A stretch of 64,000 nt of DNA from Escherichia coli (GTDB taxonomy: Bacteria; Pseudomonadota; Gammaproteobacteria; Enterobacterales; Enterobacteriaceae), in NCBI RefSeq assembly GCF_030384885.1, contig NZ_CP128613.1; one strand, 5' to 3'. The position numbers were made by a program, and so were the translations under genes. Numbering within the stretch: the first letter of the stretch is position 1; each line of letters opens with the position of its first letter. Below are positions 63,818-63,916 of the stretch, in pieces. Below the pieces are notes generated by a model. That model was given only the letters and a program-made list of their open reading frames with translations, ran no database searches and was not told the DNA's origin.

Positions 63818-63916
63818 CGTTGTCACCAGAAAAGTGTGACGCATATTGCTTTTGGTCATTATCTGCACAGTAAACGGTGGTATACTGTGCAGGTCTTGTC
63901 TAAAAGCGAGGATGCT

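Follow-up and report, generated by a model that had tools for sequence, protein, structure and literature searches.

The spacer between menI and ydiH in Escherichia coli raises the question of whether a perfect palindrome lying across the -10 element of a promoter is the binding site of a repressor or the mark of a different kind of element. We analyzed this palindrome in a 64,000-nucleotide stretch of E. coli DNA, referred to here as the window, together with the orthologous spacers of other Enterobacteriaceae. A repressor binding site is the less likely reading: the palindrome more probably forms the apex of a conserved hairpin in mRNA that spans the menI-ydiH spacer.

The palindrome and the mapped ydiH promoter

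The palindrome consists of a left arm, ctgcacagta (63863-63872), a 10-nt spacer, aacggtggta (63873-63882), and a right arm, tactgtgcag (63883-63892), all on the + strand, and the sequence read at 63863-63892 confirms the perfect 10-bp inverted repeat with a 10-nt spacer that the original prediction had described upstream of ydiH. The genes on its 5' side are ydiJ (60354-63410, + strand) and menI, encoding 1,4-dihydroxy-2-naphthoyl-CoA hydrolase (63407-63817, + strand), with the TGA stop codon of menI at 63815-63817. On the 3' side, the sequence places the Shine-Dalgarno element of ydiH, GAGGA, at 63908-63912 (+ strand) and its ATG at 63917-63919 (+ strand), and the RefSeq coordinates of the ydiH coding sequence in orthologous E. 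coli records agree with this start codon.

The promoter of ydiH is experimentally mapped. The ydiH entries in the supplement of PMC4488433 give a primary start at MG1655 position 1765146 (- strand), 24 nt before the ATG, located by 5' RNA-seq and confirmed by primer extension on a plasmid construct spanning -100 to +15, and the promoter sequence is published there as tggtcattatctgcacagtaaacggtggtatactgtgcagGtct. The same entries report that G63892 (-1) is also used in stationary phase via primer-dependent initiation, with 54-60% of the wild-type 5' ends at -1, sensitive to oligoRNase expression. In the window, the start corresponds to G63893 (+1, + strand), 7 nt downstream of an extended -10 element, TGgTATACT (63878-63886, + strand), whose TG occupies 63878-63879 and whose hexamer TATACT occupies 63881-63886. 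The mapped start thus puts TATACT at -12 to -7 (PMC4488433, ydiH entries of the supplement), and the proposal that this hexamer is the -10 element overlapped by the right arm holds. The arms and spacer span -30 to -1 with the dyad centered at -15.5: the left arm occupies -30 to -21 and lies outside the primary transcript of ydiH, and the right arm occupies -10 to -1 and covers the last four bases of the hexamer and the discriminator. Another ydiH promoter, TTGTCA-16-CATATT (63820-63847), has been suggested from genomic SELEX with RNA polymerase (PMC3946193). We rejected it: the mapped start lies elsewhere, a deletion has removed the suggested -35 from the Citrobacter freundii complex, and Enterobacter lacks the element.

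Counting perfect inverted repeats of ≥10 bp whose arms are 3-20 nt apart, we found 11 distinct ones in the window, compared with 1.4 (sd 1.2) in dinucleotide shuffles; since each shuffled window gives 1.4 such repeats, the palindrome alone is statistically unremarkable. It is raised above chance by its context, namely an extended repeat, a fold, and a pairing kept across genera. The repeat extends to an imperfect inverted repeat with 28-nt arms, 63848-63875 with 63880-63907. Of 5426 complete E. coli genomes, 5421 contain its 42-nt core, each as a single copy and 5358 of them at ≥99% identity, and none of these E. coli genomes has an annotated feature under the core; K-12 MG1655 is identical to the window over the 86 nt studied.

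Folding and covariation of the menI-ydiH spacer

The spacer is predicted to fold as + strand RNA into one irregular hairpin of ~75 nt (63841-63915) that fills the distance between menI and ydiH and carries the palindrome at its apex. The upper stem-loop (63861-63894, + strand) has 12 continuous pairs, including one U.G pair (63862-63893), at about -19 kcal/mol, and two further inner pairs (63874/63881 and 63875/63880) close a GGUG loop. Below it, the lower stem is formed by UUGCUUUUGG/CUAAAAGCGA and the outer stem by GCAU/AUGC, and the base of the hairpin takes in part of the Shine-Dalgarno region of ydiH. In E. coli, the 86-nt region folds at a minimum free energy of -40.3 kcal/mol (z = -7.9; none of 200 shuffles is as stable), compared with only -25.7 kcal/mol for the - strand; the complementary strand folds far less well because several pairs of the hairpin are G.U. 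The + strand is more stable than its complement in 41 of the 42 orthologous sequences. All 17 sequences that were folded give one long hairpin with the promoter at its apex, with z-scores from -0.3 to -7.9, of which 12 are ≤-2.3. The hairpin is weak in much of the Enterobacter clade, where an A.C mismatch exists at 63865/63890: the upper stem has only -2 to -10 kcal/mol, and the z-score of the region is as poor as -0.3. An Rfam scan of 62000-64000 with E-values up to 10 returned only sub-threshold chance matches, and the sole overlap with the hairpin was mir-1278, at 22 bits against a gathering score of 61.

A MenI scan with one genome per species took in at least 80 Enterobacteriaceae loci, and 383 further menI loci were left out. 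ydiH lies directly 3' of menI in 45 of the 80 loci, from Escherichia, Salmonella, Citrobacter, Enterobacter, Lelliottia, and Leclercia; it lies 376 nt downstream of menI in Intestinirhabdus alba (L028), and the remaining 34 loci carry no ydiH. The 86 nt upstream of ydiH were aligned as 42 distinct sequences, almost free of gaps, with a mean column identity of 79%. Near-invariant columns in the 42 orthologues comprise TGnTATACTG, GAGGA, and the block TTGCTTTTGGTCA (63846-63858, + strand; -47 to -35) on the 5' side of the lower stem. The spacing of the arms is constant, with no indel in the 42 orthologues, and the outer triplets CTG...CAG of the arms are well conserved.

The sequence of the arms drifts among genera (GCACAG, GCGCAG, GTGCAG, AGCCAG, GACCAG, and GGTCAG), and the partner arm covaries with it. 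In E. coli, E. fergusonii, and C. amalonaticus, the left arm CTGCACAG and the right arm CTGTGCAG pair perfectly, and E. albertii and many Citrobacter combine CTGCGCAG with CTGTGCAG through one G.U pair. In Salmonella and C. koseri, a left arm of the form GTG(C/T)GCAG (e.g., GTGCGCAG) faces CTGTGCAC, with the outer C-G pair turned into G-C. Enterobacter has CTAGCCAG and CTGGTCAG, where an A-U pair becomes C-G, a C-G pair becomes G.U, and one A.C is found; the same right arm, CTGGTCAG, pairs perfectly with CTGACCAG in RIT714 (L076) and through three wobbles with TTGGTCAG in Lelliottia (L060, L062).

Over the 42 orthologues, 87.8% of the cells of the upper stem are paired, compared with 17-45% in slid controls; double-change cells number 49 versus at most 13, and the covariation score is 0.309 versus at most 0.063, with none of 500 shuffles attaining the observed score. 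The whole hairpin gives 78% paired cells against 31-51%, 99 double-change cells against at most 34, and a covariation score of 0.215 against at most 0.112 in the slid controls. Neither of two variable pairs is broken in any of the 42 sequences: 63866/63889 is found as CG (20), GU (18), UG (3), and AU (1), and 63867/63888 as CG (16), GU (14), AU (10), and UG (2). On a neighbor-joining tree of the menI and ydiH coding sequences, these two pairs underwent 13 single-side changes, all between Watson-Crick and G.U, and two double changes that keep the pair, and the outermost C-G pair changed to G-C in the Salmonella/C. koseri clade. The pairs are thus kept by compensatory and wobble changes above the level of both slid and shuffled controls, as in a conserved structured RNA, with the caveat that most of the covariation signal comes from a few deep events between two clades.

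The tolerance of wobble bears on which molecule is paired. G.U cells outnumber A.C cells by 100 to 33 in the upper stem and by 89 to 37 in the lower stem, and therefore the + strand RNA is favored as the pairing molecule. As judged from these alignments, the compensatory, G.U-tolerant changes in the arms favor base pairing in + strand RNA over a fixed protein recognition sequence, and we infer that the selected molecule is RNA rather than DNA. Because promoter function fixes the right arm and the loop, part of the conservation of the structure is not independent evidence. DNA-level constraints may account for much of the conservation, for the loop without indels, and for the invariant TTGCTTTTGGTCA block. 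By eye, this block resembles an FNR/CRP-family site, TTGAT-N4-ATCAA, at 7-8 of 10 positions. A putative FNR/CRP-like site of this kind, centered at -40.5, the position of a class II activator, could explain the spacer without indels.

Several lineage variants touch the same spacer. A second, smaller palindrome, GTGAC-GTT-GTCAC, was read at 63814-63826 (+ strand), where it overlaps the menI stop TGA (63815-63817), as had been noted for this locus; its center is about -73 from the ydiH start. In Escherichia, Salmonella, C. koseri, C. amalonaticus, and Intestinirhabdus, its arms are kept around a variable middle triplet (GTT, GGT, AAC, CCT); the Citrobacter freundii complex has lost the palindrome by deletion, and Enterobacter lacks it. 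The spacing of this element, TGTGA-N5-TCAC, differs from the canonical CRP spacing; ydiH is among the predicted targets in a genomic SELEX study of CRP (PMC3105977). In the C. freundii complex (L008, L011, L013-L015, L017-L021, L024), a deletion of ~20 bp between two TGTGA repeats, equivalent to ~63818-63839, has taken away the small palindrome together with the '-35' (TTGTCA) of the SELEX-derived promoter, and the menI-ydiH spacer is 81-87 nt in these loci versus 102-104 nt elsewhere. In I. alba, a palindromic element of ~268 bp (L028:2976-3254) is inserted at the TATA of the ydiH -10, and we take its core, ATCCCCGGGAGC...GACCGGGGTGAG, to resemble ERIC/IRU repeats. The insertion rebuilt TATACTG at the 3' junction and cost the extended -10 its TG; the two arms are now ~270 nt apart, and 7 of 8 positions still pair.

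Competing explanations of the palindrome

The original prediction read the palindrome as a dimeric repressor site over the -10 element. By this explanation, a dimeric DNA-binding repressor would sit on the two 10-bp arms, centered at -15.5, and block RNA polymerase at the extended -10. The perfect dyad in E. coli exactly over -30 to -1 of the mapped promoter, the indel-free arm spacing, and the conserved outer triplets are all suggestive of such an operator, and ydiH expression is stress-responsive, so some regulation exists. Known operators over a -10, of the LexA, TetR-family, and LacI-family types, likewise place a perfect dyad on the core promoter. The orthologous operators of a conserved regulator normally retain their sequence. 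Here, however, a dyad over a real core promoter is found without conservation of the half-site in the orthologous promoters: the inner arm bases vary between genera and covary through compensatory and wobble changes, with G.T imperfections frequent and A.C few. Moreover, neither regulon copies nor a cognate protein are known for the element, unlike for operators of those types. The half-site occurs at chance level in the 64-kb window, which holds no second copy of the palindrome, and the 5421 E. coli genomes hold no second full-length copy. An EcoCyc-derived table gives no regulator for ydiH. None of the MarA/SoxS, CRP, or LexA-type motifs fits the arms when their consensus sequences are compared by eye, and a literature search for the sequence strings of the palindrome returned nothing relevant. 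The arms that covary across genera, the single-copy state of the element, and the regulator table without a ydiH entry do not support the repressor site, which we regard as unlikely. The comparative data instead favor an RNA hairpin in a transcript from an upstream start, the outcome that the original prediction had itself set against its repressor.

We also considered YdiH itself as an autorepressor coevolving with the arms. The ydiH product is a 62-residue protein of unknown function that belongs to PF15930, a domain of unknown function, and its match to a 'transcriptional regulator-like' domain stays below threshold (17.8 bits, cut-off 23.8). No NCBIfam match and no relative by sequence among the solved PDB structures were found. 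The AlphaFold model has three helices (pLDDT 87), and Foldseek against the PDB gave no match with E ≤ 0.001, so that the modeled protein appears to lack a significant likeness to any solved fold, DNA-binding or other, which counts against the operator. YdiH is 81-94% identical across clades whose arms differ. We rejected the autorepressor on these grounds, the protein being nearly invariant while the arms vary. The family comprises 275 clusters; the 120 listed are almost all from a few enterobacterial genera, and among these the family is confined to genera with ydiH 3' of menI. Many gene callers lengthen YdiH at the N-terminus, to a protein of 100-107 residues, into the hairpin region.

A canonical Rho-independent terminator of the ydiJ-menI unit, overlapping the ydiH promoter by coincidence, would also leave a stem-loop at this place. 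The stem-loop lies ~45 nt past the menI stop (the upper stem begins 44 nt after it in E. coli), in most genera CAAAA precedes the stem and GTTTTG follows it, as the A-tract and T-tract of a terminator would, and species that lack ydiH have a textbook terminator in the corresponding position. However, the U-tract is short and does not exceed UUUU (GUCUUGUCU in E. coli, GUUUUG(A/U)AC elsewhere), and most species have a large loop of 10-14 nt. All 42 orthologues score below zero by an approximate d'Aubenton-Carafa measure (best -11; T-score 1.3-3.5), whereas control terminators from ydiH-less species (Klebsiella, Leclercia, and others) are positive by the same approximate score in four of five cases, and the consensus scan did not call the site. 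Term-seq reports no 3' end here: in the complete curated tables of Adams et al. 2021, neither the 3' ends nor the Rho-termination regions include menI, ydiI, ydiH, or 17650xx-17652xx, an absence for which low expression could be the cause. The accessible part of the SMRT-Cappable-seq supplement has no entry for the menI-ydiH hairpin region. Compared with intrinsic terminators, the locus has the stable stem-loop after the stop and lacks both a U-tract of ~7-9 nt and a mapped 3' end, and we consider a canonical terminator improbable. In E. coli, E. albertii, and E. whittamii, the sequence after the stem has changed from GTTTTGAAC to GTCTTGTCT (window 63893-63903), which weakens the T-tract; E. 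fergusonii (L084:1176-1186) retains the ancestral form.

The loci without ydiH (L031, L038, L045, L054, L058, L065, L069, and others; Klebsiella, Kosakonia, and Leclercia) carry a canonical hairpin plus T-run directly after menI, which suggests that menI normally ends a transcription unit here. Some of them have a rydB-like sequence (TTATGAGAYTATTC...CTTCAAGAGCTAAGCC) after the menI terminator. Since such loci run from menI through the terminator to the rydB-like sequence, ydiH and its promoter appear to have been inserted or lost between menI and rydB in particular lineages.

The stem-loop might also be a relic with no present function. The ydiH promoter could, for example, have arisen on an ancestral menI terminator, with the right arm held by promoter selection. 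Chance alone would give about one perfect 10-bp inverted repeat per 64 kb, promoter function constrains the right arm in any case, and the structure has decayed in the E. cloacae clade. The behavior of the left arm makes a relic a poor explanation, however: it has no other known constraint and yet tracks the right arm, without a single broken cell at the two variable pairs in 42 sequences. Processing by RNase III, which would cleave a 25-30-bp irregular duplex of the read-through RNA and separate the menI and ydiH messages, would fit the intercistronic position and a helix of ~26 pairs in E. coli (23 of 25 continuous in E. fergusonii), a length within the known range of RNase III substrates, but the helix is much weaker in Enterobacter and the available part of the supplement to the cleavage map of Gordon et al. 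2017 has no menI or ydiH entry, and we give this explanation little credence.

A proposed insulating stem-loop

We propose that the menI-ydiH spacer encodes a conserved RNA stem-loop whose apical stem is the palindrome, with the extended -10 promoter of ydiH nested in the hairpin loop and 3' arm. Because the start G63893 directly follows the right arm, at the exact 3' foot of the upper stem, a transcript from the ydiH promoter contains neither arm, only read-through RNA from ydiJ-menI could form the hairpin, and the two RNA isoforms differ in hairpin content. Read-through transcripts, which we assume to exist, would extend past the menI stop with both arms and fold into the ~75-nt hairpin. In these transcripts, the hairpin may act as an exonuclease barrier, a weak attenuator, or a 3'-end stabilizer of the menI message. 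It may also bury the ribosome-binding region of ydiH, in which case YdiH would be made mainly from its own promoter. The transcripts that start at G63893 lack the 5' half of the hairpin and would stay open.

The second effect is consistent with the predicted energies. Opening the ydiH ribosome-binding site (-15 to +10) is predicted to require a mean of 12.2 kcal/mol in the read-through RNA versus 6.3 kcal/mol in the own-promoter RNA, and the predicted energy is higher in the read-through RNA in 12 of 13 species. It exceeds that of controls with a shuffled upstream sequence in 11 of 13 species, at ≤0.03 in seven of them; the predicted masking is absent in two of the 13 and not significant against the shuffled controls in six.

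Both proposed effects have known counterparts. Stem-loops in intercistronic regions and 3'-UTRs block 3'-to-5' exonucleases and set the differential stability of operon segments, such as the REP hairpins after malE and the stabilizer hairpins left by Rho-dependent termination. Like these stem-loops, the menI-ydiH element is a stable hairpin near an upstream stop, in which pairing is conserved over sequence and a strong U-tract is not needed; in contrast, it is single-copy, belongs to no REP-type repeat family, encloses a working ydiH promoter, and has no 3' end in the Term-seq tables. It also resembles cases in which an upstream sequence sequesters the ribosome-binding site and start-site isoforms differ in it, since part of the Shine-Dalgarno, with the spacer between it and the ATG, lies in the lower stem, the mapped ydiH start drops the 5' half, and the predicted opening energy is roughly halved. 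Unlike in those cases, the effect here is a prediction and, as noted, falls short of significance in six of the 13 species.

We hold tentatively, at a little less than an even chance, that the element is an insulating stem-loop, a barrier at the 3' end of menI combined with a mask on the ydiH ribosome site in the read-through RNA. A full two-isoform switch, in which the read-through RNA is blocked, processed, or stabilized with its ribosome-binding site masked and the RNA from the nested promoter is translatable, is possible and rather doubtful. If such a switch were true, the 30 bp of the palindrome would work at once as promoter DNA and as an RNA stem, and the covariation would be a compromise between two codes.

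We would class the element as a previously undescribed example of something familiar, an mRNA stem-loop between two genes, which here happens to enclose a promoter. The menI-ydiH hairpin is ordinary gene-boundary housekeeping and no new kind of system. With the ydiH promoter already mapped and the function of YdiH unknown, the practical stakes are small, and the value of the case is mainly methodological: a palindrome over a -10 looks like an operator, and the comparative data show evolution of the pairing type. If the hairpin insulates menI from ydiH, it would be a compact case of a promoter and an RNA structure in one DNA segment, and it would explain the unusual conservation of this spacer across the Enterobacteriaceae.
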